NCBI GenBank assembly: GCA_964507665.1
Contig: CAZDPT010000001.1
Location: 33,912 to 97,911 of the forward strand
Origin: an uncultured Candidatus Saccharibacteria bacterium
GTDB lineage: Bacteria; Patescibacteriota; Minisyncoccia; Minisyncoccales; CAYZYK01
DNA: 64,000 bases
Direction: 5' to 3'
The notes under the pieces were generated by a model, which was given only the letters and a program-made list of their open reading frames with translations, was not told the DNA's origin and searched no databases. Shown here in pieces: positions 3,471-36,582 of the stretch (position 1 is its first letter; each line of letters opens with the position of its first letter). The position numbers were made by a program, and so were the translations under genes.

Positions 3471-6400
3471 ATGGCAAAATCTTCAAAAACTAAAACAAAA
3501 GAAATAGGTGAAGTAAAAGAGAGAAAAATAACAGAAGAGATGAAAGAGAGTTATATTGACTATGCTATGTCAGTTATTATTTCCAGAGCCTTGCCTGATG
3601 TCAGAGATGGTTTGAAGCCAGTTCACCGCAGAATTCTATATGCAATGTATGAGGATAGACTACTTCATAATGCCAGTTTCAGAAAATCAGCTACTGTAGT
3701 GGGGGCTTGCCTGAGTCGATATCATCCTCATGGAGATGTAGCTGTTTATAATTCTTTAGCAAGAATGACCCAAGATTTTTCTCTAAGATATCCGTTGACT
3801 TCCGGACAGGGAAATTGGGGTTCAATTGATGACCCTTCAGAATTTGCTGCAATGAGATATTGTATTACTGGTGATTCAATGATTGTTACCGACAGATGCT
3901 TAGAAAAAGTTGGGGAAGTTTCGGATAAAGAAGATATCTCTTTAAAGGTTTTATCTATGGGGAAAAAGGTGAATCAGGCATCAAAATGGTTTGATTCTGG
4001 AATTCACCCTGTTTTACAAATTAAAACTCATCGTGGTTATTCTTTGAGGGGGACATTTAATCATCCAATATTAACTTTGGTTCAGAACCAGGAGACAGGT
4101 AAACCAAACTTTAAATGGAAACTATTGGAAAACATTGAGAAAGGTGATTTTGCTGTTATTGATAGAAGTGACACTTTCTGGCCAGAAAAAGAACCTAGTT
4201 TAAAAAAATATTTTCCTGAAAGAGAAAGAAAAGACCGTGCTTTTGTTTATAACTTACCTTCTAAAATGAACCAGGACTTAGCTTTCTTAATGGGGGCTAT
4301 AACGGCTGAGGGCTATATTTCTATAGGAAAGAAGAGCGGAGCTCATAAGATAGGTTTTTGTAACACCGACAAGGAATTTCTTGATGGGTTTAGAAAAAGA
4401 TTTAAGAATCTATTTCCAAATTGTAAGATTTATGAACAAAAAAGAGACTCCTTAAGTTATGGTAAGAAAGAATTTGTCTCCTTTGAAATATGTTCTAAAT
4501 ATCTTGTTGAATTTTTGAAAAATTTAGGCCTTCAAGAAGTTCTTTCTGATAAAAAAAGAGTCCCTGAAATAATATTTCATTCTAGTAAGAAATCTGTAGC
4601 AGAGTTTCTAAAAGGATATTTTGAGGGGGACGGGGGGGTTTATCAAAACGTTGATTCTGGCTGGATAGAAGCCTCCTCTGCTAGTGGAGATTTATTTGAA
4701 GAGATACAAAATATTTTATTAAGGTTTGGTATAGTTTGTTCGGTGGTATATAACCAAAAAAGGAAAGAGTTTAAATTACTTATTAGAGGTTATAATAATC
4801 TGGGCCAGTTTAGAGAAAAGATTAATTTTCTTTCAAAAAGGAACAAAAATAAACTTAAAAAGTTTTCTCGCATTTATTCGGGAACCGCAATATCCAAAAC
4901 AGATTATATTCCCTTTCTTTCCCGGTATATAAGAAAAAAATATAAAAAGAAGGAAATAAATCCCGAGGATAAAAAATATCTTCGAACTCACAACCTTGAC
5001 AGATATTCCAAATTAAAGAAATATTTTCCTTATTTAAAAAAGATACTAGATAAGTCCGATATTGAACTTATTGAGAACTTTCTCGAAAATCATTATCTGT
5101 TTGATTCTATTGTCTCTATTAAGAAGAAATCAAAAGAGAGAGTGTATTCTTTAAGGATAGATAGTTCTTGCCATTCTTTTGTTTCTAACGGTTTTATTAG
5201 CCATAATACTGAAACAAAACTTTCAAAAATTGGAGAAGAAATGTTAAGAGACATTAAAAAAGACACAGTTGATTTTGAAGACAATTACGATGGGACCAGA
5301 CAAGAGCCAGTTGTTTTACCTTCTCCTGTCCCTCAACTTTTATTAAATGGAGCTTTGGGTATTGCAGTTGGTATGGCCACAAAGATTCCTCCTCATAATC
5401 TTTCTGAGGTTTGTGATGCTTGTTGTTTTCTTATTGAAAATCCAGAAGCTGAAACCTCTGATTTGTTTAAATTTATTAAAGGACCTGATTTTCCAACCGG
5501 TGGTATGATTTTTGATAAAAAGGAGATTATTTCTGCTTATTCTCAAGGCAAAGGTAAGATTGTGATGAGAGCCAAAACTAACATAGAAAAAAAGAAAGGG
5601 GGGGGAGCTAAAATTATAATTACAGAAATTCCCTATCAAGTTCAAAAAACCAGTTTAATTTCTAAGATGGCTAAGTTAGTTTCTGATAAGAAGATTAAAG
5701 GGATAAAAGATATTAAAGATTTATCAGATAGAGAAGGCATGAGAATTGAAGTAACAGCAAAAAAAGGTTCAAATCCTCGCAGAATTCTGAACAGACTCTA
5801 TAAATTTACCAATCTTCAGAAGAATTTCTATTTGAATATGTTAGCTATCGTTGATGGAATTCAGCCCAAAATTCTTTCTTTGACTGATGTTCTTTCTTAT
5901 TTCATTGCTCACAGAAAAGAGGTTGTGAAAAGAAGGACTAAATTTGAATTAGAGAAAGCAAAAGACAGAGCTCATATTCTTGAAGGGTTGAGTGTAGCTT
6001 TGAAAAATATTGATGATGTTATAGCAACAATTAAGAAATCAGCTAACCGTGATAAAGCTAAGAAAAACTTGAAGAAAAAGTTTGAATTAAGTAACAAGCA
6101 AGCAGAAGCAATATTACAGATGCGTCTTCAAGCCTTAGCTAAACTTGAAAGAGAAAAGATAGAAAAAGAATTCAAGGAATTAAAAAAGAAAATTAAGAAA
6201 TTAAAGGCAATTTTGAAAAGCAAAAAGAAGATTAAAGAAATTGTTAAAAAAGAATTAAAAGAAGTAAAAGAAAAATATGGGGATAAAAGAAAAACTAAAG
6301 TCAAAAAAGGTAAAATCAAAAGGATAAAAGAAGCAGATCTAGTTCCTTTACGGGAAACAATTATTACCCTGACAAAAGGAGGGTATGTTAAAAGAATTAA

Positions 6401-7319
6401 ACCAGGCACTTATAAGATTCAGAGAAGAGGCGGTAAAGGAATTATTGGTATGAAAACAAGGAAAAAGGATATTGTTGAACATTTTGTTTCTGCGTCAACA
6501 CATGATAAACTTCTCTTTTTTACAGACTCTGGAAAGGTTTTTCAAACTAAAGTTTACGAAATTCCAAAGGCAAAAAGAGTGGCCCGAGGTAGAGGCTTAG
6601 TTAACTTTTTAGATCTCTCCACAGAAGAGAATGTTTTATCTTTAATTCCCTTAAAGAAACAAGAAGAGAAGGGGATTAAGTATTTGGTTATGGTTACAAA
6701 AAATGGTAAAATAAAGAAAACAAGTTTAGATAAGTTCCAAAACGTAAGAAGAACTGGAATTCGAGCTATAAAGTTGAGAAAGGGAGATTTAGTAAGAGGT
6801 GTTATAAAAACTACTGGAAAAGACCAAATAATCCTGATTACCAAGAAAGGGAAATCAATAAGATTTAAAGAACAACAAGTAAGATCTATGGGTAGAGCAA
6901 CTTATGGAGTAAAAGGTATTAAACTTAAGAAAGGAGATGAGATAATTGGAATAGATGTTATCCATTCAGCAGACAAGAAGAAATCCAAGAAAAAAGAAAA
7001 GAAAAGCAAAAAAGGAAAGAAAACAGTATTGGTGGTTACAGAATCAGGTTATGGTAAAAGAACTCCTCTCTCGAAGTATAGAACTCAGAAGAGGGGAGGA
7101 GTAGGAATAAAGACAGCTAATATAAATAAGAAAACGGGCCAGATTGTAATTGGAAAAGTTCTAAGTTCTGAAGAAAAGGATCTAATTGTAATTTCAAGAA
7201 AAGGACAAGTGATAAGAGTTAAGATTGATTCTATTTCTATCCACAACAGAGCAACTCAGGGAGTTAGAATTATGAGGCTGAAAGAAGGAGATAAAGTAGC
7301 TTCTGGTACCTGTATTTAA
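3471..7319 (+). CDS. gyrA: DNA gyrase subunit A, interrupted in-frame by a 449-aa intein (precursor 1282 aa, mature about 833 aa)
   Basis: N-terminal GyrA signatures ([32 protein letters not shown], catalytic AAMRY). After the intein the GyrA sequence resumes (TETKL..., [23 protein letters not shown]). C-terminal beta-pinwheel repeats carry a K-rich insertion. Confidence 0.92.
3861..5207 (+). mobile_element. intein with LAGLIDADG homing-endonuclease domain at the gyrA-a site (immediately after the active-site Tyr)
   Basis: Starts with Cys ([11 protein letters not shown], block A) right after AAMRY. Block B is TFNHPILT. Two LAGLIDADG motifs ([15 protein letters not shown] and [14 protein letters not shown]). 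Ends ...SNGFISHN, with Thr as the first C-extein residue. 1347 nt, in frame. Confidence 0.88.
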
Positions 7320-7342: not shown

Positions 7343-7855
7343 ATGTTCGATCCAGAAGAAGTTTTAAACAATTTGGATTTGAGAAGCAATATGACAGCTG
7401 CTGAATTTGGATGTGGCGGGGGAGGTTTCGCTATCCCCCTGGCTAAAAGACTAAAACAAGGAAAAGTTTATGGTTTGGATATTCAAGAAGAAAAGTTATC
7501 TGCCTTAAAGAATAAAGCAACTTTGGAGAATATTTCTAATATACAGACTATTGTTTGTGATTTAGAAAAAGAAAAAGGTTCCACCTTAAAGGGTGGATCT
7601 TTAGATTTAGTTTTGATTCCAAATGTTTTATTTCAAGCAGAGGATAAAACTGCTATAATAAAGGAAGCTAAAAGAGTTTTAAAAGAAGCTGGGGAAATTC
7701 TTGTGGTGGATTGGAAAAAAGAATCCTCTTTGGGACCAAAACAGGGAAGGGTTTCAAAAGAGGAAGTTCAGAAAATTACAAAAGAAATAGGGCTTAAATT
7801 AAAAAAAGAGTTTTCTCCAGGTGACTATCATTATGGTTTGGTATTTAGAAAATAG
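7343..7855 (+). CDS. class I SAM-dependent methyltransferase
   Basis: Motif I AEFGCGGGGFAIPLA (GxGxG), acidic residue after beta-2 (YGLDIQ), 170 aa. Confidence 0.65.
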   Translation: MFDPEEVLNNLDLRSNMTAAEFGCGGGGFAIPLAKRLKQGKVYGLDIQEEKLSALKNKATLENISNIQTIVCDLEKEKGSTLKGGSLDLVLIPNVLFQAEDKTAIIKEAKRVLKEAGEILVVDWKKESSLGPKQGRVSKEEVQKITKEIGLKLKKEFSPGDYHYGLVFRK

Positions 7856-7866: not shown

Positions 7867-8220
7867 ATGTTAATAAAAAAATCTTTTGTTCTCTTAATAT
7901 TGTTTTTGATCTTGCTGCTCTCTTCAAGCTTTGCGAAGGCAGTTATGATTGATAATCCTCTACAGGCTGAAAGTTTTTCAGATCTTATCAAGGCAATTGC
8001 GGAAATAATTTCAAGTATTGTTGGTGTTTTGGCTGTTTTAATGTTGATAATTGCGGGAATCTATTTTGTTACAGCAGCAGGTGATCCAAATCAAATCTCT
8101 AAAGCTAAAACCATGGTAAAATATGCTATAATAGGAGTTATTATCGCTACTTTAGCTGGGGCTATAGGGAGTGTAATTGAAGAAAAGTTATTAACAAAAG
8201 GCTTGTTGATAATTTTTTAA
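7867..8220 (+). CDS. small secreted/bitopic protein, paralog 1 of 9 (VirB2/T4SS-pilin-like architecture)
   Basis: Signal peptide (..SSSFAKA), variable segment, TM1 ending AGIYFVTAAGDPNQISKAKT, TM2 glycine/alanine-rich. Most divergent member of the array. Confidence 0.55.
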   Translation: MLIKKSFVLLILFLILLLSSSFAKAVMIDNPLQAESFSDLIKAIAEIISSIVGVLAVLMLIIAGIYFVTAAGDPNQISKAKTMVKYAIIGVIIATLAGAIGSVIEEKLLTKGLLIIF

Positions 8221-8283
8221 GTATTTATTAAGATATTATAATATAATTCAAAGGTCGAAATTTAAGATTTAAAATATAAAAAC

Positions 8284-8600
8284 AAAAACATGAAAAGAGT
8301 ATTATCTGCTTTAATTCTCACAAGTCTCTTAGCTGTACCTCTTTTAGTGACAGCCCAAGGTGAACCAACACCTCCTGGAGATATTGAAGATATTCTTATT
8401 ACGATAAGAGGTATATTATGGGGTGCCTTCACTATCTTTGCTGTGATTATGTTTATTTATGCGGGTATCTTGTTTTTTACTGCCGGGGGTGATCCAGAAA
8501 AAGCAGCTAAAGCAAAAAGCGCTGTTATATTCGGAGTTGCTGGAATAGCAATTGCTATCTTAGGTTATGGAATTGTTGAGATTATGAGAGGAATTATGGG
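8284..8600 (+). repeat. tandem duplication unit, copy 1 (about 317 bp, near 100% identical to 8749..9065)
   Basis: Gene 8290..8607 and gene 8755..9072 are identical at nucleotide level from just upstream of the ATG through about codon 98. They differ only in the last about 7 codons and in the downstream spacers. Confidence 0.85.
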
Positions 8601-8607
8601 AGCCTGA
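8290..8607 (+). CDS. small secreted/bitopic protein, paralog 2 (T4SS-pilin-like)
   Basis: Signal peptide (LVTAQGE), core FIYAGILFFTAGGDPEKAAKAKSAVIFGVAGIAIAILGYGIVEIMRGIMGA. Near-identical to paralog 3. Confidence 0.6.
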   Translation: MKRVLSALILTSLLAVPLLVTAQGEPTPPGDIEDILITIRGILWGAFTIFAVIMFIYAGILFFTAGGDPEKAAKAKSAVIFGVAGIAIAILGYGIVEIMRGIMGA

Positions 8608-8748
8608 TAAATTGACTTTCGGAGATTGAATAGAATTATAGTGTTTTATTTTAAAATGGGTTCTAAGCCATAGGGTTTTGAAATGGCTTAGAACTCATTA
8701 TTTGGGTAAAAATAATTAAAAAAGGTTGAATTCTAAAATAAATTATAT

Positions 8749-9065
8749 AAAAACATGAAAAGAGTATTATCTGCTTTAATTCTCACAAGTCTCTTAGCTG
8801 TACCTCTTTTAGTGACAGCCCAAGGTGAACCAACACCTCCTGGAGATATTGAAGATATTCTTATTACGATAAGAGGTATATTATGGGGTGCCTTCACTAT
8901 CTTTGCTGTGATTATGTTTATTTATGCGGGTATCTTGTTTTTTACTGCCGGGGGTGATCCAGAAAAAGCAGCTAAAGCAAAAAGCGCTGTTATATTCGGA
9001 GTTGCTGGAATAGCAATTGCTATCTTAGGTTATGGAATTGTTGAGATTATTAAAGGAATTATGGG
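8749..9065 (+). repeat. tandem duplication unit, copy 2
   Basis: See copy 1. Offset of 465 bp. Confidence 0.85.
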
Positions 9066-9072
9066 GGCTTGA
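8755..9072 (+). CDS. small secreted/bitopic protein, paralog 3 (recent duplicate of paralog 2)
   Basis: Protein identical to paralog 2 except the C-terminal EIIKGIMGA versus EIMRGIMGA. Confidence 0.6.
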   Translation: MKRVLSALILTSLLAVPLLVTAQGEPTPPGDIEDILITIRGILWGAFTIFAVIMFIYAGILFFTAGGDPEKAAKAKSAVIFGVAGIAIAILGYGIVEIIKGIMGA

Positions 9073-9214
9073 GTTAATTTACTTTCTTCTTCCAAATAAG
9101 TTGACAATTCTTATCTCAAGAGTTATTTTAAAAGAAGAGTTTTTAAGCCTTTAAAAGGTCGTTCTAAATTCTATTTTCAAGTAAAATCTTGGATAAAAGA
9201 TAAGTTTAAAAAAC

Positions 9215-9544
9215 ATGAGAAAGATATTTGCAATTTTAGTTCTTAGTATTTTTTTGAGTTTGCCCTTTTTGGTATCTGGGGCTCTTCCTTCAGATCCTGG
9301 CTATAGCTGGTGGACAGATCTTGAAAGCGTACTAGAAGGTATATTAAGTAAATTTTGGACGATTTTTGTAGTTTTTTCTGTTATGGCCTTTATTTACGCT
9401 GGTTTCTTATTTTTAACCTCATCTGGAGATCCTGACAGAATAAAAAGAGCGAAGGGAGCTTTCATCTGGGGTGTGGTCGGTGTAGCTGCTGCTATTCTTG
9501 GTTATGCGATGATTAATATCATTAAGGGTATAGTTGGAGCTTGA
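9215..9544 (+). CDS. small secreted/bitopic protein, paralog 4 (T4SS-pilin-like)
   Basis: Signal peptide, core FIYAGFLFLTSSGDPDRIKRAKGAFIWGVVGVAAAILGYAMINIIKGIVGA. TTGACA-type promoter in the upstream spacer. Confidence 0.6.
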   Translation: MRKIFAILVLSIFLSLPFLVSGALPSDPGYSWWTDLESVLEGILSKFWTIFVVFSVMAFIYAGFLFLTSSGDPDRIKRAKGAFIWGVVGVAAAILGYAMINIIKGIVGA

Positions 9545-9775
9545 GATATTCTCTTAAAAATTATTCCCTGGTGTAGTTTTCAGGATAATATTATTTTGAA
9601 ATTGTCAGTAATTTAGATTAAGCAAGAAAGTAATTACAAAGAGCTAAAATAGTAAGAGTATTAGGTTGATATTTAAAACACAAAAGAATATATCTTTGAC
9701 AATTTAGAGATTGAAGATTCCTCAAATAGAGCACATATATTTTAATTAGGACAGTACAATAATTTAAATAAAATT

Positions 9776-10078
9776 ATGAGAATAGTTTTAATTAGTTTGT
9801 TTTGCTTTGTTGTTTTAATTTTACCCTTTACAGTAAATGCTCAGATTACTTGGAAGCAACTCAGTGGAGGTCTTATATCAGCAGCTTGGTCTATTTTTGC
9901 AGTTGTGGTTATTTTAAGTTTTATTTACGCTGCTTTGTTGTTTCTCAGCTCAGCGGGAGAGCCAGATAAAGTTAGCAGAGCAAAAAGAGCTTTTATTTGG
10001 GGAGTAGCTGGTGTAGTAGTTGGACTTCTTGCTTTTACAATAATAAGTCTTATAAAGGGAATAGTTGGAGCATCATAA
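9776..10078 (+). CDS. small secreted/bitopic protein, paralog 5
   Basis: Signal peptide (TVNAQ), core FIYAALLFLSSAGEPDKVSRAKRAFIWGVAGVVVGLLAF...IKGIVGAS. Confidence 0.6.
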   Translation: MRIVLISLFCFVVLILPFTVNAQITWKQLSGGLISAAWSIFAVVVILSFIYAALLFLSSAGEPDKVSRAKRAFIWGVAGVVVGLLAFTIISLIKGIVGAS

Positions 10079-10114
10079 GTCTTATGAAGGAGATTTTATA
10101 CTAAAATATCTATA

Positions 10115-10414
10115 ATGAAAATGAAGAAAAAAACCTTAATTATTATACTTTTTCTTTTTGTTTTGCCTCTCGTGGCTAATGCTGGTTATCTTGACTCGAT
10201 ACTAATCGGAATTAAAAATGCAATGATTAAAATTGCAGCTGCTGTAGTGATAGTAATGTTTCTTTGGGCTGCTATATTATTTGCTACAGCTTCAGGAGAA
10301 CCAGATAAAATTACGAAAGCAAAAAAAGCTTTTATTTGGAGTATTGCTGCAGCAATAGTAGCTATTATTGCTACTTCTATGTTTAGTTTAATTAGTGAAC
10401 TTACTGGTTTATAG
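10115..10414 (+). CDS. small secreted/bitopic protein, paralog 6
   Basis: Signal peptide (LVANA), core MFLWAAILFATASGEPDKITKAKKAFIWSIAAAIVAII. Confidence 0.6.
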   Translation: MKMKKKTLIIILFLFVLPLVANAGYLDSILIGIKNAMIKIAAAVVIVMFLWAAILFATASGEPDKITKAKKAFIWSIAAAIVAIIATSMFSLISELTGL

Positions 10415-10476
10415 TATTCTTTTTAATTCTAGAGGAATATTTAGAAGTTTAAAATAATCTTATCAATTATTACTAA

Positions 10477-10929
10477 ATGAAAAGGAGTCTATTTATTTTC
10501 ATTCTTATCTGTAATATTTTTTTGGTCTCTAATATTTTTCTTATTTTTCAGCTTGAAGGTAATAATACAGAAGAACTTTTCAGTAATTCATCCTCCTTTT
10601 TAAAAGATATCTTTACAGCAGAGAAGATTTTTGCTCAAGATGGAGATGGAGAACCTATTCCACCAAAAAAAGAAATTCCTTGGACTGGTAGCACAACTTT
10701 AAATAATATTTTTTTAGGTATCGCAACCTGGATAGTTAGAATTGGAGTAACAGTTACGGTAGTTATGTTTCTTTGGGCTGCTATATTATTTGCTACAGCT
10801 GCTGGAGACCCGACCAAACTCTCCCAAGCAAAAAAAGCTGTAATTTGGGGTTTGGCTGGAGGAATAATAGTTTTTCTTTCTCAAGTGATGAGCTGGATAG
10901 TTTATGAAATTACTGGTCTTTCCTGGTAA
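10477..10929 (+). CDS. small secreted/bitopic protein, paralog 7 (longer variable N-region, 150 aa)
   Basis: Core MFLWAAILFATAAGDPTKLSQAKKAVIWGLAGGIIVFL. Extended hydrophilic segment before TM1. Confidence 0.55.
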   Translation: MKRSLFIFILICNIFLVSNIFLIFQLEGNNTEELFSNSSSFLKDIFTAEKIFAQDGDGEPIPPKKEIPWTGSTTLNNIFLGIATWIVRIGVTVTVVMFLWAAILFATAAGDPTKLSQAKKAVIWGLAGGIIVFLSQVMSWIVYEITGLSW

Positions 10930-10971
10930 TAAATTTCTATTTTAAGATATAAAAAGGTTTGGAAAATTTAT

Positions 10972-11310
10972 TTGAATCAAAGTATGAAAAAAATCTTATC
11001 TATTATAATTATTTCTAGCATTTTCATTTCTCCTATTATTGTTTCAGCTGCTGATTTATTCGAGGTACCAGAGAAAACCTTAGAGAATGTAAAAACAACA
11101 GTTATAAATATATTAAAGGCTCTTGTTTGGACAGTAACCATAGTTATGTTCGTTTACGCTGGAATTTTATTTCTTACCTCAGCAGGAGCTCCAGATAAAC
11201 TCGGAAAAGCAAAAAAAGCGTTTATTTGGGGAATAGGGGGAGTAATAGTGATTGGAATAGGTTTTGCAATAGAAACCATTGTAAGTGAATTGTTTGGTTT
11301 AAGTTTCTAA
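10972..11310 (+). CDS. small secreted/bitopic protein, paralog 8
   Basis: Signal peptide (IVSAAD), core MFVYAGILFLTSAGAPDKLGKAKKAFIWGIGGVIVIGIGF. Confidence 0.6.
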   Translation: MNQSMKKILSIIIISSIFISPIIVSAADLFEVPEKTLENVKTTVINILKALVWTVTIVMFVYAGILFLTSAGAPDKLGKAKKAFIWGIGGVIVIGIGFAIETIVSELFGLSF

Positions 11311-11387
11311 ATTATTTTTATTGGGTACTTTTTATCTGTTTTGGAAATAAAAATTAATAATTCATAGAATAAAATTTTTCAAAAAAT

Positions 11388-11714
11388 ATGAATAAAATTT
11401 TATTAAATCTCAGTCTTACTATTCTTATCGTCAGCATTTTAGTTTTACCTTTTGAAGTTATCGCAGCAGGAGATAGTGGTATAACTGAGATTAAAAATAA
11501 AATTAAAGAATTAGGAAAACTAGCCTGGACTATTTTAGTTTCTTTAGCAGTAGTAATGTTTGTATATGCTGGAATTTTATTTCTGATATCTTCGGGATCT
11601 CCAGATAAACTCGGAAAAGCAAAAAAAACGTTTATTTGGGGAATTGCTGGGCTGATACTGGGTCTCTTAGCATTTTGGCTAGTAGAAATTATTTCAGGAA
11701 AGGCTGCTTGGTGA
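11388..11714 (+). CDS. small secreted/bitopic protein, paralog 9
   Basis: Signal peptide (EVIAAGD), core MFVYAGILFLISSGSPDKLGKAKKTFIWGIAGLILGLLAF. Confidence 0.6.
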   Translation: MNKILLNLSLTILIVSILVLPFEVIAAGDSGITEIKNKIKELGKLAWTILVSLAVVMFVYAGILFLISSGSPDKLGKAKKTFIWGIAGLILGLLAFWLVEIISGKAAW

Positions 11715-11732: not shown

Positions 11733-11814
11733 GGGCGAGTGGCGGAATTGGAAGACGCGTACGGTTTAGGACCGTATCCTGAAAAGGTTGGGGGTTCGAG
11801 TCCCTCCTCGCCCA
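11733..11814 (+). tRNA. tRNA-Leu (anticodon TAG), type II with long variable arm
   Basis: Manual fold: acceptor GGGCGAG/CTCGCCC, anticodon stem TACGG/CCGTA, loop TTTAGGA, T-loop TTCGAGT, discriminator A, no encoded CCA. Confidence 0.8.
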
Positions 11815-11824
11815 TACAAAAATT

Positions 11825-11852
11825 AAAACTCCAGTAAGTTTACTGGAGTTTT
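11825..11852. terminator. bidirectional intrinsic terminator (12-bp stem aaaactccagta/tactggagtttt, loop agtt) between tRNA-Leu and convergent hsp20
   Basis: Perfect hairpin flanked by an A-run upstream and a T-run downstream. Confidence 0.7.
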
Positions 11853-17369: not shown

Positions 17370-18929
17370 ATGCCCAAAAAATATTTAGAAATAGCCCATG
17401 CTTCAGATTTCAAAGATTTAAGAAGAAGAAAGATTTATCGTTTCTTTGAAATGATTCCGGGAGTCTTAAGTTTGGGAACTCTTATCGGAGTTCTCTTTTT
17501 TTCTTGGATTTTACCTTCTTTTGTGGCAATTTTTATAATTCTTTTTTGTCTCTTTTATCTTTGTAAAATCTGTTATCTTTCAATTCATCAGATAATTACT
17601 TATATTAAGATGAAAAAGAATCTAAGAATTGACTGGCTAAGTAAACTTAAAAAATTAAAAACTAAGAACTGGGAAAACATTTATCATTTAATAGTTTTAC
17701 CAACTTACAAAGAAAAAAAGAAAATTATTAAGGACAGTTTGAACGCTTTGGTAAAATCAGATTATCCAAAAGAAAAGATGATAGTAGTTTTGGGAGTTGA
17801 AGAGAGGGCAGGCAAACAAGCTTTGCGAGGAGCTGAAGAGATAGAAAAAAAATACAAGAACAAATTTTATAAGTTTTCAATTACGGTTCACCCAAAAGAC
17901 ATTCCTGGCGAGGTAGCAGGAAAAGGTTCTAATGAAAGATGGGCAGTAAAAAAAGCCCATCAGAAGATAATTGATAAAGAAAAAATTCCCCATAAAGACA
18001 TTGTTGTTTCTAGTTTTGATATTGATACCAAAGTTTACCCAAAATACTTTTCTTGTTTGACATATCATTTTTTGACGACAAAAAACCCCCATAAAACAAG
18101 TTATCAACCCATCCCAGTTTATAATAACAATATTTGGCAAGTACCTGCTTTCAGTAGAGTAGTAGCAACTTCTAACACTTTCTGGCAGATGGTTCAACAA
18201 GGAAGGCCAGAAAAACTCGTTACTTATTCTTCTCACTCAATGCCCTTTCGGGTCTTTGAAGAAGTAGGATATCCTAATAATATGGTCTCTGATGATTCAA
18301 GGATTTTTTGGAAATCATATCTTCATTATAATGGAGATTATAAGGCTCTGCCCTTATATTATCCTGTTTCAATGGATGCTGTTTTAACCGATTCTCTTTT
18401 AAAAACAATAATCAATCAATACAAGCAACAAAGAAGGTGGGCTTGGGGATGTGAGGAGATTCCTTATTTGATATATGGCTTTTTGAGAAATAAAAAAATA
18501 TCTTTCTGGAATAAATTAAAACATCTTCTTGCTGTAATTGATGGTTTTTGGTCCTGGGCAACCTCTACCCTTTTAATTTTTATTCTAGGATGGTTGCCTT
18601 TAATTTTAGGAGGAGAACGATTTAGCACAAGTTTACTCTCCTATAATCTTCCCAGGTTAACTGGAAGAATTATGACTTTTGCTATGATTGGAATGGTTGT
18701 TTCTGCTATCTTAAGTATGCTTCTTTTGCCTTCCCGGCCTCAAGGAATTAAAAGAACAAAATATATCTCTTTATTTTTACAATGGCTTCTTTTACCTATT
18801 ACTTTAATATTTTTTGGGTCTTTTCCAGCTCTGGATGCTCAAATTCATTTAATGATTGGTAAGTATATGGGTTTTTGGGTTACCGAGAAATCTCGCTATC
18901 CCAGAAGCAGAAAACAACCAGAAGAATGA
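17370..18929 (+). CDS. membrane-embedded processive family-2 glycosyltransferase (cellulose/chitin-synthase-like)
   Basis: N- and C-terminal TM helices flank a GT-A domain. Contains DxD-like SFDIDTK and the Q(Q/R)xRW motif QQRRWAWG diagnostic of processive GT2 enzymes. Confidence 0.75.
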   Translation: MPKKYLEIAHASDFKDLRRRKIYRFFEMIPGVLSLGTLIGVLFFSWILPSFVAIFIILFCLFYLCKICYLSIHQIITYIKMKKNLRIDWLSKLKKLKTKNWENIYHLIVLPTYKEKKKIIKDSLNALVKSDYPKEKMIVVLGVEERAGKQALRGAEEIEKKYKNKFYKFSITVHPKDIPGEVAGKGSNERWAVKKAHQKIIDKEKIPHKDIVVSSFDIDTKVYPKYFSCLTYHFLTTKNPHKTSYQPIPVYNNNIWQVPAFSRVVATSNTFWQMVQQGRPEKLVTYSSHSMPFRVFEEVGYPNNMVSDDSRIFWKSYLHYNGDYKALPLYYPVSMDAVLTDSLLKTIINQYKQQRRWAWGCEEIPYLIYGFLRNKKISFWNKLKHLLAVIDGFWSWATSTLLIFILGWLPLILGGERFSTSLLSYNLPRLTGRIMTFAMIGMVVSAILSMLLLPSRPQGIKRTKYISLFLQWLLLPITLIFFGSFPALDAQIHLMIGKYMGFWVTEKSRYPRSRKQPEE

Positions 18930-19117: not shown

Positions 19118-19399
19118 ATGACAAACAAAAGCAAAAAAGCAAAAAAGCAAAAATTTTTGTCTACCACTGAATTAGCTGAGATTTTAGGTATCAGCCGGAT
19201 TGCAGTTTACAAGAAAATAAAAAAGGGAGAAATTAAAGCTCAAAAAATAGCAGGTAATTATGCTATCGATAAGAAAGATTTAGGGGGTATTTTAAAAGAA
19301 GAATTATCTCAAAAAGAAAAAGCAGAAATTGAAGAGGTAGTTGATAAGGTGGTTGAAGATTACGGTGAAACCCTTAAATTGTTATCTCGAAATGATTAA
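19118..19399 (+). CDS. excisionase-family helix-turn-helix DNA-binding protein, likely antitoxin/autorepressor of the downstream Doc toxin
   Basis: LSTTELAEILGISRIAVYKKIKKGEIKAQKIAGNYAIDKKDL (Xis/MerR-type HTH). Its stop overlaps the doc start (ATGATTAA). Confidence 0.6.
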   Translation: MTNKSKKAKKQKFLSTTELAEILGISRIAVYKKIKKGEIKAQKIAGNYAIDKKDLGGILKEELSQKEKAEIEEVVDKVVEDYGETLKLLSRND

Positions 19400-19817
19400 A
19401 TCTTTATCTAAAGCAGAAGTTAAAGAGATTGCCTTTGTGCTTGCCAAAAAGCATCTTGGTTTTGATGAACCAATTCCTGGTTTTGATAGTCGCTATCCTA
19501 ATATTTTAGAAAGTTGTCTTGTGGTTCCTTTTCAAACATTTACCAAAAAACCAGTTTACAAGGGTCTTATTGGAAAAGCATCAATCCTTTTTTATTTAAT
19601 GATTAAAAACCATCCATTTCAGAACGGCAATAAAAGGATTGCAATGACCACATTGCTTTTTTTTCTTTACAAAAACAAAAAATGGTTAGAGATTGACGCC
19701 AAAGAACTTTATAATTTTGCGGTTTGGGTCACAGAAAGCAACCCAAAAGTTAAGACCGAGACCATAGAATCTATTAAAAAGATTCTTAGAACCCACTTAG
19801 TTAATTTAAAGGAATAA
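19392..19817 (+). CDS. doc: Doc/Fic-family toxin (death-on-curing)
   Basis: Core motif HPFQNGNKR (compare P1 Doc HIFNDANKR). ATG at 19392 overlaps the upstream stop. The track ORF starts further upstream at 19341. Confidence 0.75.
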   Translation: MIKSLSKAEVKEIAFVLAKKHLGFDEPIPGFDSRYPNILESCLVVPFQTFTKKPVYKGLIGKASILFYLMIKNHPFQNGNKRIAMTTLLFFLYKNKKWLEIDAKELYNFAVWVTESNPKVKTETIESIKKILRTHLVNLKE

Positions 19818-27295: not shown

Positions 27296-28366
27296 ATGAT
27301 TTTCAATCCTTTCAGTTTTCTTTTTCCTAAAAAATTTGTTGGGGTAGACGTTGGTACTTCTGCAATAAAACTTGTGGAAATTTCTCGCTGGGGGAAAGGA
27401 ACTACCCTAGAGAATTACGGGGAAATAAAATCTGGAGCATTATTTGAAGAATCATTCCAAACTTTTGAGACAGCCACTCATTTAATTTCAGAAGAATTTG
27501 TTGGAAGAGCTATTAAGGCTATTTTAAAAGAAGCTAAAATTAGAACTAAATCAGCTATCTTTAGTCTTCCTGATTTTTCTACTTTTGTTACTACTTTTGA
27601 GTTACCTCCGATGACTGAAAAAGAGATTCCAGAAGCAGTTCATTATACAGCTCCAAGATACACTCCTCTTCCTATAAAAGAAACTACTCTCGATTGGCAT
27701 TTAATTGGAGGTACTCCCGGTGACAAAAAATCTCATCTTAAAATATTGTTGATTGCTATTCCAAAAGAAGTGGTAGAGAAATATCAAGAAACAGCTAAAA
27801 GAGCAGGATTACAACTTTATGCTCTGGAAGCAGAAGTTCTAGCTATAAATAGGGCTTTGGTGAAAAACGAAAAAAAAGTAATTTGTCTTGTAGAGATCGG
27901 TGCTCAGAGTTCAACTATAAGTATTGTAGATAAAGGAATCTTTAAAAAAAGTTATAGCTCTGATTTTTCCAGCAATCGATTAACTCACAGTATAAGTGCT
28001 TCTTTAGATATGGAGTATTCGGAGGCTGAGAAAACGAAAACAAAACATGGTTTAATTTCTTCCCAAGAAATAGATCTCAGGGACAGTTTAGTTCTTTTAA
28101 TTAACCCATTCTTGGAGGAGATTAAAAAAATTTCAGATGAATTTTCTAGAAAAAATGAGAAACCAGTAGAAGAAATCTATTTATCAGGAGGAGGAGCTAA
28201 TTTACCAGGATTAAAAAAATATATTCAAAAAGAAACAGGCAAGAAAACTAAGATACCTAACTGTTTTTCTGGAATTCTTTCTCCCCCCATTCTTGATAAA
28301 ACCCTGAAAGAAATAAGTCCTCGTTTTGCAGGGGCGGTTGGGGCAGTAATTGGTGAACTTTGGTAA
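27296..28366 (+). CDS. pilM: type IV pilus assembly protein PilM (actin-like ATPase)
   Basis: N-terminal FVGVDVGTSAIKLVEI, ASKHA fold pattern, 356 aa, first gene of the pil operon. Confidence 0.8.
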   Translation: MIFNPFSFLFPKKFVGVDVGTSAIKLVEISRWGKGTTLENYGEIKSGALFEESFQTFETATHLISEEFVGRAIKAILKEAKIRTKSAIFSLPDFSTFVTTFELPPMTEKEIPEAVHYTAPRYTPLPIKETTLDWHLIGGTPGDKKSHLKILLIAIPKEVVEKYQETAKRAGLQLYALEAEVLAINRALVKNEKKVICLVEIGAQSSTISIVDKGIFKKSYSSDFSSNRLTHSISASLDMEYSEAEKTKTKHGLISSQEIDLRDSLVLLINPFLEEIKKISDEFSRKNEKPVEEIYLSGGGANLPGLKKYIQKETGKKTKIPNCFSGILSPPILDKTLKEISPRFAGAVGAVIGELW

Positions 28367-28422
28367 TTGGATATTTAATTTAGATATTATATAATAAATT
28401 AACTAGATTAAATTTTATAATT

Positions 28423-28968
28423 ATGGCTCTAAATTTTGATTTTCTTTACGGACTTAAAACAGGAAAGACTTGGTGGTTAGATGTGCTACTTTACTTTGTT
28501 TTGTCTTTATTGGTAGCTTTAATTATTTCCTATATCCTTTTTGGATTGAAAATATCTTTTCAAAAAGACCACCTTCAGGAATTAGAACAAGATATTACTA
28601 AGACAGGTACCCGGCAACAAAAAGAAGTAGAGAAAAAAGTTTTTTTGTATCAAAAGAAATTAAATGATTTTGTGGGGATATTTGAGGAACATAAGGTACC
28701 CTCAAACCTGTTTGCTTTAATTGAAGATTCAACTCTTCCTAATGTTTGGTTTACAAGCTTTATTTTAAGTACCTCAAACAATACTTTAAATTTAAGAGGA
28801 GAAACAGATGATTTTCAAACTTTAGCCCGACAAATCTCTATATTTGAAGAGAACAAACTTATCTCAGAAGTAAATCTGTTGGGAAGTTCTTTGATGGGAC
28901 AAGCAAAAATTGATTTTACTTTAGGTTTTTCTTTTAATGGAAAATTATTGAAACCATTCAGTAACTAA
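28423..28968 (+). CDS. PilN-like bitopic pilus assembly protein
   Basis: Single N-terminal TM plus periplasmic-type domain, positioned after pilM. Confidence 0.5.
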   Translation: MALNFDFLYGLKTGKTWWLDVLLYFVLSLLVALIISYILFGLKISFQKDHLQELEQDITKTGTRQQKEVEKKVFLYQKKLNDFVGIFEEHKVPSNLFALIEDSTLPNVWFTSFILSTSNNTLNLRGETDDFQTLARQISIFEENKLISEVNLLGSSLMGQAKIDFTLGFSFNGKLLKPFSN

Positions 28969-28988
28969 AAAAATATTTTATTAATAAA

Positions 28989-29537
28989 ATGAAATTAAAT
29001 CGTCCCGTCACAATAGGTCTTATCTTGATTATTATTATAATTGTAGGTTTTTATTTTGTTTTACCCAAATACAAAGAGGTTAAAAAATTCCAAGTTAAGG
29101 TTGCTGAAAAAGAAGCTGAATTAAAAGCAAAAGAAGAATATTTTAGAAAATTATCTGAAACCTTACAAAAGCTAACTGAACATGAAGAAAATGTAAAAAA
29201 GATTAATACTGCTCTTCCAGAGAAAGTTTCTCTTCCTCCTTTAATTTATTTTATTCAAGATAAGACTCTTGAAAATGGTCTAATTTTGGGAGATTTAAAT
29301 CTTCAAGGAACTTCTTCTTTAGAAAAAAAGACAGGCCTTAAGCAGACCAGTTTCTCCCTTGGAGTTACAGGTTCTTATTCTGCTTTCCGTAACTTTATTT
29401 CAAGTTTGGAAAAATCGTCTCGGCTTATCGAAATAAGTGATGTTTCATTTGGTGCTCTTCGGAAGAGAACCAGAGAAGAGGAATCTCCTCTAAAAATCTA
29501 TCAGTTTAATTTAGGAATAAAAGTTTATTCTTATTAA
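28989..29537 (+). CDS. PilO-like bitopic pilus assembly protein
   Basis: N-terminal TM, coiled-coil (EAELKAKEEYFRKLSETLQKL), then a globular domain. Position after pilN. Confidence 0.5.
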   Translation: MKLNRPVTIGLILIIIIIVGFYFVLPKYKEVKKFQVKVAEKEAELKAKEEYFRKLSETLQKLTEHEENVKKINTALPEKVSLPPLIYFIQDKTLENGLILGDLNLQGTSSLEKKTGLKQTSFSLGVTGSYSAFRNFISSLEKSSRLIEISDVSFGALRKRTREEESPLKIYQFNLGIKVYSY

Positions 29538-29541
29538 TTTC

Positions 29542-29961
29542 ATGGCTATTGTATTTATATCACCAAGAAAACCTCAAATAATATTAATTTCTGCTGCTGT
29601 GGGAGTGGTTTCTCTAGGATTGATTATTACGCTGTTGATAGTTTTTCTAAGTAAACCAGAACCTATTGCTCCCGAAGAGGTGTTCAAACCAAAAGAGGTT
29701 AAAATAGATTTTACTATTCTAAGATCTCCTCAATTAGAAAAACTTGAACTTTTTCCTGATAAAGTTAAGAAAGAATTTGTCTATGAGGCAAAGACCGAAG
29801 AGGGAGAAAAGAAAACAGGTAAAATCTTGGCGTTTTCTGAGCAAGAAGGGAGAGGAGTTTTAAGTGAGGCAGGATTATCTGATATTGAAATAGAAAGGAT
29901 TAAAATTGGTAGGAGAAACCCTTTTACTCCTTTTCAAGTTACAGAAGCAGAAGAGGATTAA
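29542..29961 (+). CDS. membrane-anchored hypothetical protein in PilP-like position (C-terminal RRNPFTPF)
   Basis: N-terminal TM, 139 aa. Position between pilO and pilB. Confidence 0.35.
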   Translation: MAIVFISPRKPQIILISAAVGVVSLGLIITLLIVFLSKPEPIAPEEVFKPKEVKIDFTILRSPQLEKLELFPDKVKKEFVYEAKTEEGEKKTGKILAFSEQEGRGVLSEAGLSDIEIERIKIGRRNPFTPFQVTEAEED

Positions 29962-29966
29962 AAATT

Positions 29967-31691
29967 ATGGAAGGTTTAATAAAACAACTATATAAGGAGG
30001 GAGTAATAGATAAATCCAAAAGAAAAAGTTTAGGATTAGAGAAAAAAAGAACAGGAAAAAAAGAAGAACAAATAATCTTAGAAAAAAAAGTTGTTCCGGA
30101 AGATTTTTTATTTAAATTAAAAAGTAAACTATTAAAGATTTCCTTAAGAGATATTGTTCCCGAGGAGATACCATTAGAAGTTTTGGAATTAATTCCGGAA
30201 AGTTCTGCTTTAAGTTACAAAATGATACCCTTATCTAAAAAAGATAGTACAGTGGAGATAGGAATGGTTTATCCTGAAGATGCTCGTCCCAAAGAAGCTT
30301 TAAGGTTTATTGCCAGACAAGGAAAGTTTGACTACAAGATTTATTTAATCACTCTAACTGATTTTCAAGATCTTATCGGGCAATACAGAACCTTAAAAAG
30401 AGAAACGAAGAGAGCCCTGGAGGCTATGGAAGAGGAAGAAATCAGCATTCCATCTCCTGAGAGAAAACTCCCGGAAACTGAAAAGATAACTGAAGAAACC
30501 CCAATTGTTAAGATGGTTTCTGTGATTATAAAACATGCTGTTGAAGGTAAGGCTTCTGATATTCATATTGAACCTACAGCAGAAAAAGTAAAAGTCCGTT
30601 TTCGATTAGATGGAATTTTGTATTCTAGTTTGTTTTTACCCAGAAGAGTTCATTCAGCAATCGTAGCTAGGATTAAAGTTTTAGCTAAACTAAAAATTGA
30701 TGAAACAAGAATTCCTCAAGATGGTAGGTTCACTACCGAAGTTAAAGATAAAAAAATTGATTTTAGGGTCTCTACTTTCCCAACCATTTTAGGGGAGAAG
30801 GTAGTAATAAGGGTACTTGATCCTACTGAGGGACTGAAATCTTATAAAGAGATAGGTTTGGAGAAAAGGAATCTTGAGTTGGTTGAAAAAGCAGCAAAAG
30901 ACCCATTTGGATTGATTTTGGCAACAGGTCCTACCGGTTGTGGAAAAACTACTACCCTTTATTCTCTTTTACGCCTTTTAAATAAAGAGAAAGTAAATAT
31001 TGTAACCATTGAGGACCCAGTAGAATATTCTATTGAGGGAGTTAATCAGTCTCAGGTTAAACCAGAGATAAATTATACTTTTGCCAGAGGCTTGCGTCAT
31101 GTTTTAAGACAAGACCCCGATGTTATTATGGTAGGGGAAATTAGAGATGAGGAAACAGCCCAGTTAGTAATACACGCTGCCTTAACAGGGCATGTGGTGT
31201 TTTCAACCTTACACACTAACAATGCTGTAGGAGTTATTCCCAGGTTAGTTGATATGGGAATAAGATCATTTTTACTTCCCCATAGTCTGAATATTGCTAT
31301 TTCTCAAAGATTAGTAAGATCTCTCTGTCCTGATTGTAAAAAGAAAGTAAGAGCTGATAAAGAAACAAAAGAATATATTCTAGATCAGATTGATAAATTC
31401 CCCCCAGAAGTAAAAAAGAAAGTAAAAATTCCTAAAACACTTTATATCTATGAACCCCAGGGATGTGAGAAATGTAATTTTAAAGGTTACATCGGAAGAA
31501 TAGGTGTGTTTGAGGTTTTTAAAATGACAGATAAAATGGCTGATTTAATCTCAGAGGGAATAAACACAGATAAAATTCGCAAAGAAGCTTATCGTCAAGG
31601 TATGATTACTATGGCTCAAGATGGAGTCTTAAAGGTCTTGGATGGTGAAACTACTGTAGAGGAAGTGCTAAGATTAGTTCAAACTAGGTAA
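29967..31691 (+). CDS. pilB: type IV pilus assembly ATPase PilB (GspE family)
   Basis: Walker A GPTGCGKTT, Asp box, His box, tetracysteine CPDC...CEKC, N-terminal GspII-like domain. 574 aa. Confidence 0.88.
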   Translation: MEGLIKQLYKEGVIDKSKRKSLGLEKKRTGKKEEQIILEKKVVPEDFLFKLKSKLLKISLRDIVPEEIPLEVLELIPESSALSYKMIPLSKKDSTVEIGMVYPEDARPKEALRFIARQGKFDYKIYLITLTDFQDLIGQYRTLKRETKRALEAMEEEEISIPSPERKLPETEKITEETPIVKMVSVIIKHAVEGKASDIHIEPTAEKVKVRFRLDGILYSSLFLPRRVHSAIVARIKVLAKLKIDETRIPQDGRFTTEVKDKKIDFRVSTFPTILGEKVVIRVLDPTEGLKSYKEIGLEKRNLELVEKAAKDPFGLILATGPTGCGKTTTLYSLLRLLNKEKVNIVTIEDPVEYSIEGVNQSQVKPEINYTFARGLRHVLRQDPDVIMVGEIRDEETAQLVIHAALTGHVVFSTLHTNNAVGVIPRLVDMGIRSFLLPHSLNIAISQRLVRSLCPDCKKKVRADKETKEYILDQIDKFPPEVKKKVKIPKTLYIYEPQGCEKCNFKGYIGRIGVFEVFKMTDKMADLISEGINTDKIRKEAYRQGMITMAQDGVLKVLDGETTVEEVLRLVQTR

Positions 31692-31755
31692 GGTTCTATC
31701 CATAGAAAAATAATAAATATTTCATAAAGGTCAAAAGAAAATTAATGTATAAAAT

Positions 31756-32127
31756 ATGAAATCAATTCTACTAGTTGAAGATGACCCCTTTTTAATAGAT
31801 ATATATGTTACTCGCCTAAGAGACGAGAGTTATAAGATTGAGGTAGCAAAAGATGGAAAAAGTGCCTTGGAAAAGCTTAAAAAGAAAAAACCTTCTCTCT
31901 TGTTGTTAGATATTGTTTTACCTAAGATGGATGGTTGGGAATTACTGAAAAAAATAGCAAAAGATTCTAAACTCAAAAAAATGAAGGTAATTATACTCTC
32001 TAATCTAGGAGAAAGAAAGGAAATAAAGGAAATAAAGAAAGGATTGGGTCTGGGAGCTGTCAAATATTTAGTTAAGGCAAATTATACTCCTAGTGAAGTT
32101 GTGGAGGAGATAAAAAAGATTCTTTAA
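31756..32127 (+). CDS. stand-alone response-regulator receiver domain (CheY-like)
   Basis: LLVEDDPF...DIVLPKMDGWELLKKI...KVIILSNLG: phospho-acceptor Asp and conserved Lys pattern. 123 aa. Confidence 0.75.
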   Translation: MKSILLVEDDPFLIDIYVTRLRDESYKIEVAKDGKSALEKLKKKKPSLLLLDIVLPKMDGWELLKKIAKDSKLKKMKVIILSNLGERKEIKEIKKGLGLGAVKYLVKANYTPSEVVEEIKKIL

Positions 32128-32166
32128 AAATAGTTATTATTAATTAATCTTTGAATTATTATATCC

Positions 32167-33231
32167 ATGAACTATTCTCTGAAACTTAAAAAACTGTTAT
32201 CTCAAGTTTTAAAAGAGAAAGCCTCCGATTTACATATTTCTGTTGGTCATCCTCCAACTTTAAGGATAACAGGTAGATTAACTCCTCTGGTAAAAGAGAA
32301 AGAAATTACCCAAAAGGACGCTCAAGGATTGGCTTCTGCTTTGATGACTGAAACTCAATGGCAGAAATTTCAGAAAGAAAAGGGGGTTGATTTCTCTTAT
32401 GACTTTGAAAAGAAAGCCAGATTCCGAGTAAATGTCTTTTTTCAAAGAGGGAATGTAAGTGTAGCTTTAAGATTAATTCCTTACAAAATTAGAACAATTG
32501 AAGAGTTAAATTTACCTCCTGTTTTACATGAATTTACTCGACGATCCCAGGGACTTGTTTTAATCACTGGAGCTTCAAGTCAAGGTAAATCTACTACCTT
32601 AGCTGCCTTAATTGATGAAATAAATGAAAACAGACCAGTTCATATAATAACCATTGAAGACCCTATTGAGTATGTTTTTCATGATAAACAAGCTATAGTG
32701 GATCAAAGAGAGGTTTATCATGATACTTTAAGTTTTAATAAAGCTCTCAGATCTACCTTCCGTCAAGACCCCGACGTTATTATGGTAGGGGAGATAAGAG
32801 ATCTTGAGACAATCTCTAGTGTTATTACCGCAGCAGAAACGGGTCATTTAGTTTTTGCTACCTTACATACTAATTCTGCCTCCCAAACTATTCATCGAGT
32901 TGTTGATGTTTTTCCACCAGAGCAACAGAACCAGATTAGGTATCAATTATCTGGTTCTTTATTGGGGGTAGCGTCACAAAGATTAATTCCTTCAATTAAA
33001 GGAGGATTTGTTCCTGCTTGTGAGATTATGTTCGCTAATTCAGCTGTGGCAACTCTGATTCGGGAGAACAAAATTCATGAACTTCCTGCTGTGATTGAAA
33101 CTTCAGCTAAAGAGGGTATGGTCTCTCTAAACAGAGCTTTGGCAGATTTAGTTAGAAGGAAAGAAATTTCTGTTAAAAATGCCATTAGTCATTCTTTAAA
33201 GCCCGGTGATCTTAGAAACATTTTAGGGTAA
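32167..33231 (+). CDS. pilT: twitching-motility/retraction ATPase PilT
   Basis: 354 aa PilT-size hexameric ATPase. Walker A GASSQGKSTT, IITIEDPIEY, RQDPDVIMVGEIRD. Confidence 0.85.
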   Translation: MNYSLKLKKLLSQVLKEKASDLHISVGHPPTLRITGRLTPLVKEKEITQKDAQGLASALMTETQWQKFQKEKGVDFSYDFEKKARFRVNVFFQRGNVSVALRLIPYKIRTIEELNLPPVLHEFTRRSQGLVLITGASSQGKSTTLAALIDEINENRPVHIITIEDPIEYVFHDKQAIVDQREVYHDTLSFNKALRSTFRQDPDVIMVGEIRDLETISSVITAAETGHLVFATLHTNSASQTIHRVVDVFPPEQQNQIRYQLSGSLLGVASQRLIPSIKGGFVPACEIMFANSAVATLIRENKIHELPAVIETSAKEGMVSLNRALADLVRRKEISVKNAISHSLKPGDLRNILG

Positions 33232-33261
33232 AAGAAAACAAATCTTTAATAACCAAAAGAT

Positions 33262-34476: not shown

Positions 34477-34589
34477 ATAGTTATCCACATTATATTGTTG
34501 ATTTGTTTCAGGGAGATGTAGTATAATTACTTAATAAACCCGTTAATTTTTAAAAGGTCGGCTATGAAATCTTTAAAATTAAATAAAAA

Positions 34590-35036: not shown

Positions 35037-35068
35037 AAATTAATGTTAAAAGGGAGTTTGGCTTTTGG

Positions 35069-35097: not shown

Positions 35098-35125
35098 AGA
35101 GAAGAAGATATATTAAAATAGAAAA

Positions 35126-36569: not shown

Positions 36570-36582
36570 TTCTCTAGTAATT

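Follow-up and report, generated by a model that had tools for sequence, protein, structure and literature searches.

What nine small tandem genes for pilin-like proteins are doing in a chromosomal region in which no type IV secretion system (T4SS) gene is recognised is the question raised by the locus described here. The array lies in a 64,000-nucleotide stretch of contig CAZDPT010000001.1 (positions 33,912 to 97,911; assembly GCA_964507665.1), referred to throughout as the window, and occupies positions 7867–11714 of it on the + strand, where nine consecutive open reading frames (ORFs) of 99–150 aa are called, in agreement with a preliminary description made from the sequence without database searches. 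We consider it probable that the nine proteins are VirB2-like T4SS pilins that depend on a secretion machine whose genes are located in another part of the genome. The array belongs to a stable core-genome locus, in which gyrA, a methyltransferase gene, the array and tRNA-Leu follow one another, and it is a well-preserved new example of the pilin arrays already published for the Patescibacteria. The host is a low-GC member of that phylum, of Paceibacteria type; the window has a GC content of about 32% and its housekeeping genes include an intein-containing gyrA, rpoB/C, recA, ftsK, ligA and aminoacyl-tRNA synthetases.

The nine genes are genuine paralogues, homologous to one another. A hidden Markov model (HMM) built from the nine proteins matches precisely those nine ORFs and none else in the window, and local pairwise identity within the array is 29–50% for 35 of the 36 pairs (mean 42%), with copies 2 and 3 standing apart at 98%. 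The T4SS_pilin family of Pfam, PF18895, is the top Pfam match for all nine proteins, of which eight score above its gathering threshold of 26.6 bits (30.7–45.3 bits), so that the earlier assignment to a VirB2/T4SS-pilin-like family stands. Paralogue 1 (7867–8220, 117 aa, 45.3 bits) is a distinct subtype; paralogues 2 (8290–8607, 105 aa, 32.5 bits) and 3 (8755–9072, 105 aa, 30.9 bits) are the near-identical pair and differ by two residues. Paralogue 4 (9215–9544, 109 aa) falls just below the PF18895 cut-off at 24.9 bits and is nevertheless clearly a paralogue, because the array HMM matches it with an E-value of 1.2e-41. It is followed by paralogues 5 (9776–10078, 100 aa, 31.4 bits), 6 (10115–10414, 99 aa, 40.2 bits) and 7 (10477–10929, 150 aa), the last of which has a longer N-terminal region ahead of the conserved hairpin and matches PF18895 at residues 72–138 (39.1 bits). 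Paralogue 8 (10972–11310, 30.7 bits) is 112 aa long if translated from a TTG codon; public assemblies and other gene callers place its start at the ATG at 10984, giving 108 aa, and this is the more likely start. Paralogue 9 (11388–11714, 108 aa, 43.3 bits) completes the array. All are on the + strand.

The relationship to the classical conjugative pilins is more distant. None of the nine reaches the 27.9-bit gathering score of PF04956 (TrbC/VirB2), the other profile that the preliminary description had put forward, with gene 8 coming closest at 15.8 bits (E 0.017). However, when 111 aligned relatives were scanned, all 111 matched PF18895 and 45 matched PF04956 as well (E < 0.01; best E 2.3e-10), and homology to TrbC/VirB2 at the superfamily level is therefore likely; on the strength of these profile matches the T4SS_pilin family is likely tied to the classical VirB2 pilins. 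Among NCBIfam models the best match for seven of the eight proteins tested is NF045849, the 'pilin-like conjugal transfer protein' Mbov_0395 of a mycoplasma integrative and conjugative element (ICE), with scores of 18.5–38.1 bits that are all under the 40-bit cut-off. The N_methyl family of type IV pilins (PF07963) is matched by none of the nine in the Pfam scan. The family is very large: clustering at 50% identity gives 86,481 representatives that match at E ≤ 1e-3, and 29,382 when the limit is set to 1e-10.

All nine proteins share a single architecture. Each begins with a basic MK(K/R) followed by a hydrophobic leader, and in eight of the nine a V/A-x-A/G site falls at a common alignment column and fits the -3/-1 rule, the only basis on which the predicted cleavage site was judged. 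After a short variable segment there are two further hydrophobic helices joined by a lysine-rich loop, as seen from hydropathy and alignment. The whole-length alignment of the nine gives the consensus V.MFIYAGILF.TA.GDPDK..KAK.AFIWG.AG, with six invariant columns, and bears out the shared hairpin motif that had been proposed. An AlphaFold2 model of the gene 9 product, made from a 111-sequence alignment, has a mean predicted local distance difference test score (pLDDT) of 85 and forms a helical hairpin, with helices at residues 32–67 and 72–102 and a four-residue turn between them. The description of a signal peptide followed by a conserved hydrophobic hairpin in each protein is thus confirmed by hydropathy, alignment and the gene 9 model, and needs correction in one respect: the variable hydrophilic segment, put at 15–60 aa, measures about 8–25 aa in eight of the proteins and is long only in gene 7.

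The position of the array is conserved among related genomes. Using four closer paralogues as queries we found 14 related loci, all from Patescibacteria and mostly from Paceibacteria-type lineages (Staskawicz-, Terry- and Yonathbacteria). Tandem pilin copies, three to nine of them, are present in 13 of these loci, and the locus in a sister genome (L004) has nine, as in the window. The array stands directly downstream of gyrA in 11 of the 14, and in nine of those 11 a small methyltransferase homologue lies between the two, as does the class I S-adenosylmethionine-dependent methyltransferase gene of the window (7343–7855, + strand, 170 aa; Pfam Methyltransf_31/25/11). At the other end, six loci (L004, L005, L006, L007, L008 and L011) have tRNA-Leu(TAG) after the array, and beyond it, on the opposite strand, genes for Hsp20, PrsW, an aminoacyl-tRNA synthetase and TsaD are found in L004, L005, L007 and L008, while L011 stops inside the synthetase gene. 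Identity between GyrA proteins falls to 46–50% across the gyrA-linked loci. Because the order of the flanks is kept over this distance, the position of the array is old and chromosomal, and not that of a mobile island. An origin from a mobile element, which the ending of the array at a tRNA gene might suggest, was considered and rejected, since the tRNA-Leu(TAG) and flanks are conserved in six relatives, there is no integrase, and no relatives of the array proteins were found in viral contigs. Five of the related loci (L010, L012, L013, L016 and L017) have an ORF of 435–445 aa immediately 5' of the array, after the methyltransferase gene (after gyrA in L010). In all three that were scanned (L010, L013 and L017) it encodes an extracellular solute-binding protein (SBP_bac_1), with no ABC permease gene adjoining.

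Within this conserved setting the nine copies have evolved at very unequal rates. Between the window and L004 the flanking proteins are 57–89% identical, with one at 100%, and pilins 1–3 are 63–77% identical, whereas pilins 4–9 share only 31–50% identity with the copy at the matching array position and 35–55% with their best match anywhere in the array. Copies 4–9 thus diverge far faster than the flanking genes, which backs the diversification within the family that had been suggested. Positional counterparts are still visible at positions 1, 2, 3, 5, 6 and 9. Pilin 1 is 63–65% identical to copy 1 of L004, and its subtype finds its best match at position 1 of the array in L004, L005, L006 and L011; pilin 2 is 77% identical to its L004 counterpart and so is conserved like the flanking genes.

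Copies 2 and 3 show a different pattern again. They share 300 nucleotides of complete identity and their coding sequences are 99% identical, whereas the spacers on both sides are only about 50% identical. The corresponding pair in L004 has coding sequences that are 95% identical, and between the two genomes the coding sequences are 74–76% identical; L005 has one pair within its array at 87%. Since the identity of copies 2 and 3 stops at the coding sequence in both genomes, gene conversion confined to the coding region is the best account of these comparisons, and keeps the two copies near-identical. Between copies 2 and 3 there is also a 17-bp stem-loop (8655–8699, + strand) with a predicted RNA folding energy of -23.9 kcal/mol (z -6.9). 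L004 has its equivalent, also of 17 bp, at the corresponding place between the two copies (7424–7467; -23.1 kcal/mol, z -5.7), although the remainder of the spacer cannot be aligned with that of the window. These features suggest an internal attenuator, or an element that stabilises the mRNA after a highly expressed copy. An Rfam scan of the longer spacers for structured RNAs returned tRNAs only. The array therefore has marked internal contrasts, with one conserved first copy, a converted pair with its RNA hairpin, and six fast-evolving copies.

We also considered how the array might be transcribed. The preliminary description gave each gene its own TTGACA-type promoter, and this is not supported: 16 promoter-like sites were found compared with 20.0 ± 4.7 in shuffled sequences, and an exact TTGACA precedes only genes 4 and 5. 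The first of these belongs to a TTGACA/TATTTT site found by the promoter scan upstream of gene 4 (9101–9129), and the second lies within the 231-nucleotide spacer upstream of gene 5. The gap between the methyltransferase gene and pilin 1 is 11 nucleotides, and the two probably share a transcription unit; the intergenic gaps for genes 6–9 are 36–77 nucleotides. Given these short gaps and a count of promoter-like sites no higher than in shuffled sequence, most of the array looks operonic and its bulk is probably co-transcribed, although the three long spacers, of 142–231 nucleotides, may contain internal signals. The 3' end of the locus is marked by tRNA-Leu(TAG) (11733–11814, + strand; ARAGORN and Rfam) followed by a palindromic 13-bp hairpin at 11824–11852 with A and T runs on either side (terminator scan; -16.4 kcal/mol, z -5.2), which is likely a bidirectional terminator common to the array and the convergent Hsp20 gene. 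The ending of the array at a tRNA-Leu gene and a terminator of bidirectional type was thus correctly described.

A plausible scheme for the nine proteins as T4SS pilins can be built on these features. The precursors would cross the membrane through Sec, and signal peptidase I would cleave them behind the V/A-x-A/G site, leaving the mature protein in the membrane as an N-out/C-out hairpin with its variable termini directed outward; the lysine-rich GDP.K..KAK loop would be cytoplasmic, as both the positive-inside rule and the analogy of TraA/VirB2 suggest. A putative VirB4-containing T4SS encoded elsewhere would then extract the subunits and polymerise them into a surface filament for host-cell contact. 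Copies 2 and 3 are candidate major subunits, supplied in double dose, and copies 4–9 are candidate minor or variant subunits that would change the exposed termini. Relatives in which the hairpin is fused to adhesin-type PKD or PA14 domains speak for a role at the surface and may represent specialised subunits. Of this picture, the family, the architecture, the synteny, the gene conversion and the unequal rates of divergence are directly shown, whereas the formation of a filament, the reliance on a distant T4SS and the division into major and minor subunits are inferred.

The secretion machinery that this scheme presumes was not found beside the array. All ORFs of at least 500 aa in the window were scanned and none encodes VirB4, VirD4 or VirB6, so the earlier statement that these are absent nearby is borne out for the 64 kb. 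Its extension to 'any other secretion ATPase' is wrong. The Walker-A proteins recovered by the scan are only RecG, PilB, PilT, FtsK, RecA and YchF, and two of these, PilB (T2SSE; 29967–31691) and PilT (32167–33231), belong to a complete type IV pilus cluster at 27296–39032, 15.6 kb downstream of the array. The cluster encodes PilM, PilN, PilO, a small ORF, PilB, a response regulator, PilT, PilC, a major pilin, a prepilin peptidase, three more N_methyl pilins and a 433-aa ORF; the four true type IV pilins, at 34590–37734 beside the prepilin peptidase PilD, carry the N_methyl motif. Just after the cluster, at 39116–41005, is a gene for a 629-aa protein with FN3-like repeats.

The only ORF of at least 500 aa in the window that is left without an assignment encodes a 519-aa protein (17370–18929) with about four transmembrane segments, no Pfam family and weak glycosyltransferase-like matches. 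It was examined as a possible hidden VirB6 or VirB4 and rejected, as it has no Walker A motif, only about four transmembrane segments, and those weak glycosyltransferase-like matches. It is a conserved neighbour in L004, L005, L007 and L008, with 60–80% identity, level with GyrA.

Several observations weigh against a T4SS role for the nine proteins. VirB4, VirD4 and VirB6 are absent from the window, and all 14 related loci are likewise free of large unassigned ORFs and recognised T4SS genes to a distance of 10 kb from the array. No pilin was returned when PDB sequences were searched with the profile of the family; the best match, to a phage coat protein leader (E 0.028), reflects chance or leader similarity. 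No pilus has yet been seen for the T4SS_pilin family in any Patescibacteria, and the role of the Patescibacteria T4SS has been called 'completely unknown' (PMC11665869). One related genome, L013 (Yonathbacteria 43_27, a draft metagenome-assembled genome), is entered as VirB4-negative in Table S1 of PMC12102498. Finally, the strongest matches of the family profile in a large library are single polypeptides with 2–17 hairpin units behind one signal peptide, an arrangement that fits poorly with the withdrawal of individual subunits from the membrane. Multi-hairpin polyproteins of this type include P0125 (606 aa), P0130 (352 aa), P0158 (188 aa) and P0131 (1775 aa), and because they have no internal leaders they are not read-through products of tandem genes.

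Separation of pilin genes from the rest of a T4SS is not in itself exceptional. Quinonero-Coronel et al. (2025; PMC12102498), in a survey of 3,035 Patescibacteria genomes based on PF18895 and PF04956, located a pilin gene close to virB4 in just 1135 of the 1948 assemblies positive for VirB4, and unlinked pilin genes are therefore common. Two of the three related genomes that are included in their Table S1, L005 (Staskawiczbacteria 39_25) and L010 (Terrybacteria 43_35), are VirB4-positive. Neither locus has a recognised T4SS gene closer than 10 kb to its array, so the machinery, in genomes that possess it, is encoded at another site.

The main alternative, which accommodates the missing machinery differently, is that the array encodes envelope proteins independent of any T4SS, in which the hairpin acts as a membrane anchor or lattice block that displays variable peptides or adhesin domains without VirB4. 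We take this to be unlikely, although it draws on a good part of the evidence above: T4SS genes are missing near the array in the window and in all 14 related loci, the context is one of conserved housekeeping genes, one related genome is listed as VirB4-negative, and the hairpin fold is non-diagnostic. The polyproteins, moreover, resemble polytopic membrane proteins, and fusions of the hairpin to other domains are found in relatives. One of these, in L010 (6596–9211, 871 aa), has the hairpin at residues 69–127 followed by four PKD domains and PA14; another, in L015 (10777–15063, 1428 aa), has it at 68–138 followed by six PKD domains; and a 364-aa protein in L017 (7539–8633) has a long N-terminal extension with the hairpin at 265–349. 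Against independence from a T4SS are the sequence homology to TrbC/VirB2 in 45 of the 111 relatives and to the mycoplasma ICE protein, the pilin genes that do lie beside virB4 in 1135 assemblies, an array in Southlakia epibionticum that lies within the T4SS cluster and is essential together with it, and the finding that most Patescibacteria genomes carry VirB4, among them two of the three relatives checked. We regard as doubtful the more specific proposal that the gyrA-linked array is a core-genome module of the Paceibacteria without a dedicated adjacent T4SS, and its hairpin a general building block of the surface or membrane; such a block may be supplied as single genes, as a double-dose converted copy with its RNA hairpin, as PKD/PA14 fusions, and as polyproteins of up to 17 units. 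If the proteins do act independently of a T4SS, 'T4SS pilin' would be the wrong name for much of a family of some 86,000 clusters, whose annotation would need revision, and the array proteins would make up an envelope structure of a new type in these ultra-small bacteria.

The evidence for gene conversion raises a further possibility, that the array is a set of cassettes for antigenic or phase variation in which one pilin is expressed and the others serve as sequence donors, as pilS does for pilE in Neisseria. The near-identity of the coding sequences of copies 2 and 3 between unrelated flanks (99%, with 95% in L004), the 87% pair in L005 and the fast divergence of the distal copies would fit such a system. 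However, every one of the nine is an intact reading frame that has its own start codon and encodes both a signal peptide and the hairpin, and there is no truncated silent cassette among them; the conversion that is observed evens out two copies and does not shuffle variable segments; the 36–77-nucleotide gaps suggest that most copies are co-transcribed; and positional counterparts are kept between genomes at six positions. As all copies are complete and apparently co-transcribed, a cassette system is the less likely arrangement, and we judge it improbable. It is very improbable that the products act as pore formers, as holin-like or bacteriocin-type peptides, or as subunits handled by the nearby type IV pilus machine. 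They are small proteins with two transmembrane segments, a type IV pilus cluster is present in the same window, and one of the 111 relatives has a weak match to Phage_holin_2_1 (E 0.0013), but no lysis, immunity, ABC-exporter or phage genes adjoin the array in any locus and none of the relatives turned up in viral contigs, so the pore-forming alternative offered in the preliminary description finds no support. Substrates of the type IV pilus were likewise rejected, as the array proteins have class I leaders and lack the N_methyl motif, unlike the four true pilins of the cluster. Pilin subunits of a T4SS encoded at a distance therefore remain our preferred interpretation of the nine proteins.

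Some other features of the window are recorded here. The gyrA gene immediately upstream of the methyltransferase (3471–7319) encodes a 1282-aa protein with an intein that contains a LAGLIDADG homing endonuclease; GyrA is intein-free and 823 aa long in L004 and is 1299 aa long in L005, and FtsH and IF-2 of the sister genome carry inteins too (L018). On the - strand at 297–926 there is a 209-aa ORF with no Pfam match whose product is 100% identical to its sister-genome counterpart, compared with 57–89% for its neighbours, a pattern that recent transfer, recombination or extreme constraint might explain. Between the gene for the 519-aa protein and recG, at 19118–19817, is a pair consisting of a small helix-turn-helix protein (HTH_17, 93 aa) and a Fic/DOC protein, likely a toxin-antitoxin-like module.

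In short-read assemblies publicly available for this organism (SRR7048218, SRR7048220 and SRR7048227), contigs are interrupted within the array: L019 stops near window position 8313 and L001–L003 begin at about 10771, with one break precisely at the 300-nucleotide repeat of copies 2 and 3. Pilin arrays are probably fragmented, and their copy numbers under-counted, in short-read metagenome-assembled genomes, and because exact repeats in arrays break such assemblies the published copy numbers are likely too low.

The Patescibacteria make up a large and mostly uncultured share of bacterial diversity and live attached to other microbes, and in the sole genetically tractable species a T4SS and its pilin array are essential (PMC11665869, PMC12857230, PMC10633639). 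The locus described here leaves the existing picture of the Patescibacteria T4SS as it was and adds to it a clean, conserved example outside a T4SS cluster.

With the VirB2/TrbC/TraA pilins of diderm T4SSs (PF04956) the window proteins have in common a small size, a cleaved leader and a helical hairpin whose hydrophobic arms are joined by a short basic loop. They differ in that the leader is short (about 22–27 aa), the host is monoderm, there is no adjacent VirB3-B11 operon, and no cyclase or acetylase partner of the TraF or TraX type is seen for the array. Anaplasma and Bartonella have several divergent tandem virB2 copies, which are thought to vary the exposed pilus surface, and T4SS genes that are scattered on the chromosome. 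Both genera are diderm pathogens that live within animal cells, and their pilins are canonical members of PF04956, whereas the window pilins belong to PF18895 and their likely partner cell is another microbe. The match to Mbov_0395 (NF045849) lies in the hairpin region, and its source is a wall-less monoderm with a system of the MPF-FATA type, the class to which the Patescibacteria VirB4 is related; the window, however, has no ICE context and its scores are below the cut-off.

The closest parallels are the VirB2-like arrays of other Patescibacteria, which are alike in their family (PF18895, with PF04956 in relatives), in their phylum, in consisting of small divergent genes in tandem (2–11, and nine here), and in having relaxase and coupling genes likewise absent nearby. 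The preliminary description regarded a multi-gene family of this kind as unusual, and this is not supported, as 441 arrays of 2–11 pilin genes have already been published for 383 Patescibacteria assemblies, most abundantly in the Microgenomatia and Saccharimonadia, and their authors propose that variation in the arrays is an adaptation to different hosts (PMC12102498). An array in that sense needs at least two PF18895/PF04956 genes that are in tandem or have one gene between them, and the nine consecutive genes of the window fall within this definition. A 2025 review lists six divergent VirB2-like pilins in Southlakia epibionticum (PMC12857230), and the predicted pilin series of that organism (the ML1 array), shown to be essential by Wang et al. 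(2023; PMC10633639), is inside its T4SS cluster, whereas the window array is outside any such cluster. Identity within the published arrays averages 25% with a maximum of 54% (PMC12102498), compared with pairs at 98% in the window, 94% in L004 and 87% in L005, although the identity measures may differ. The window array is further set apart from those arrays by its fixed site, between gyrA with its methyltransferase gene on one side and tRNA-Leu on the other, in Paceibacteria-type genomes.

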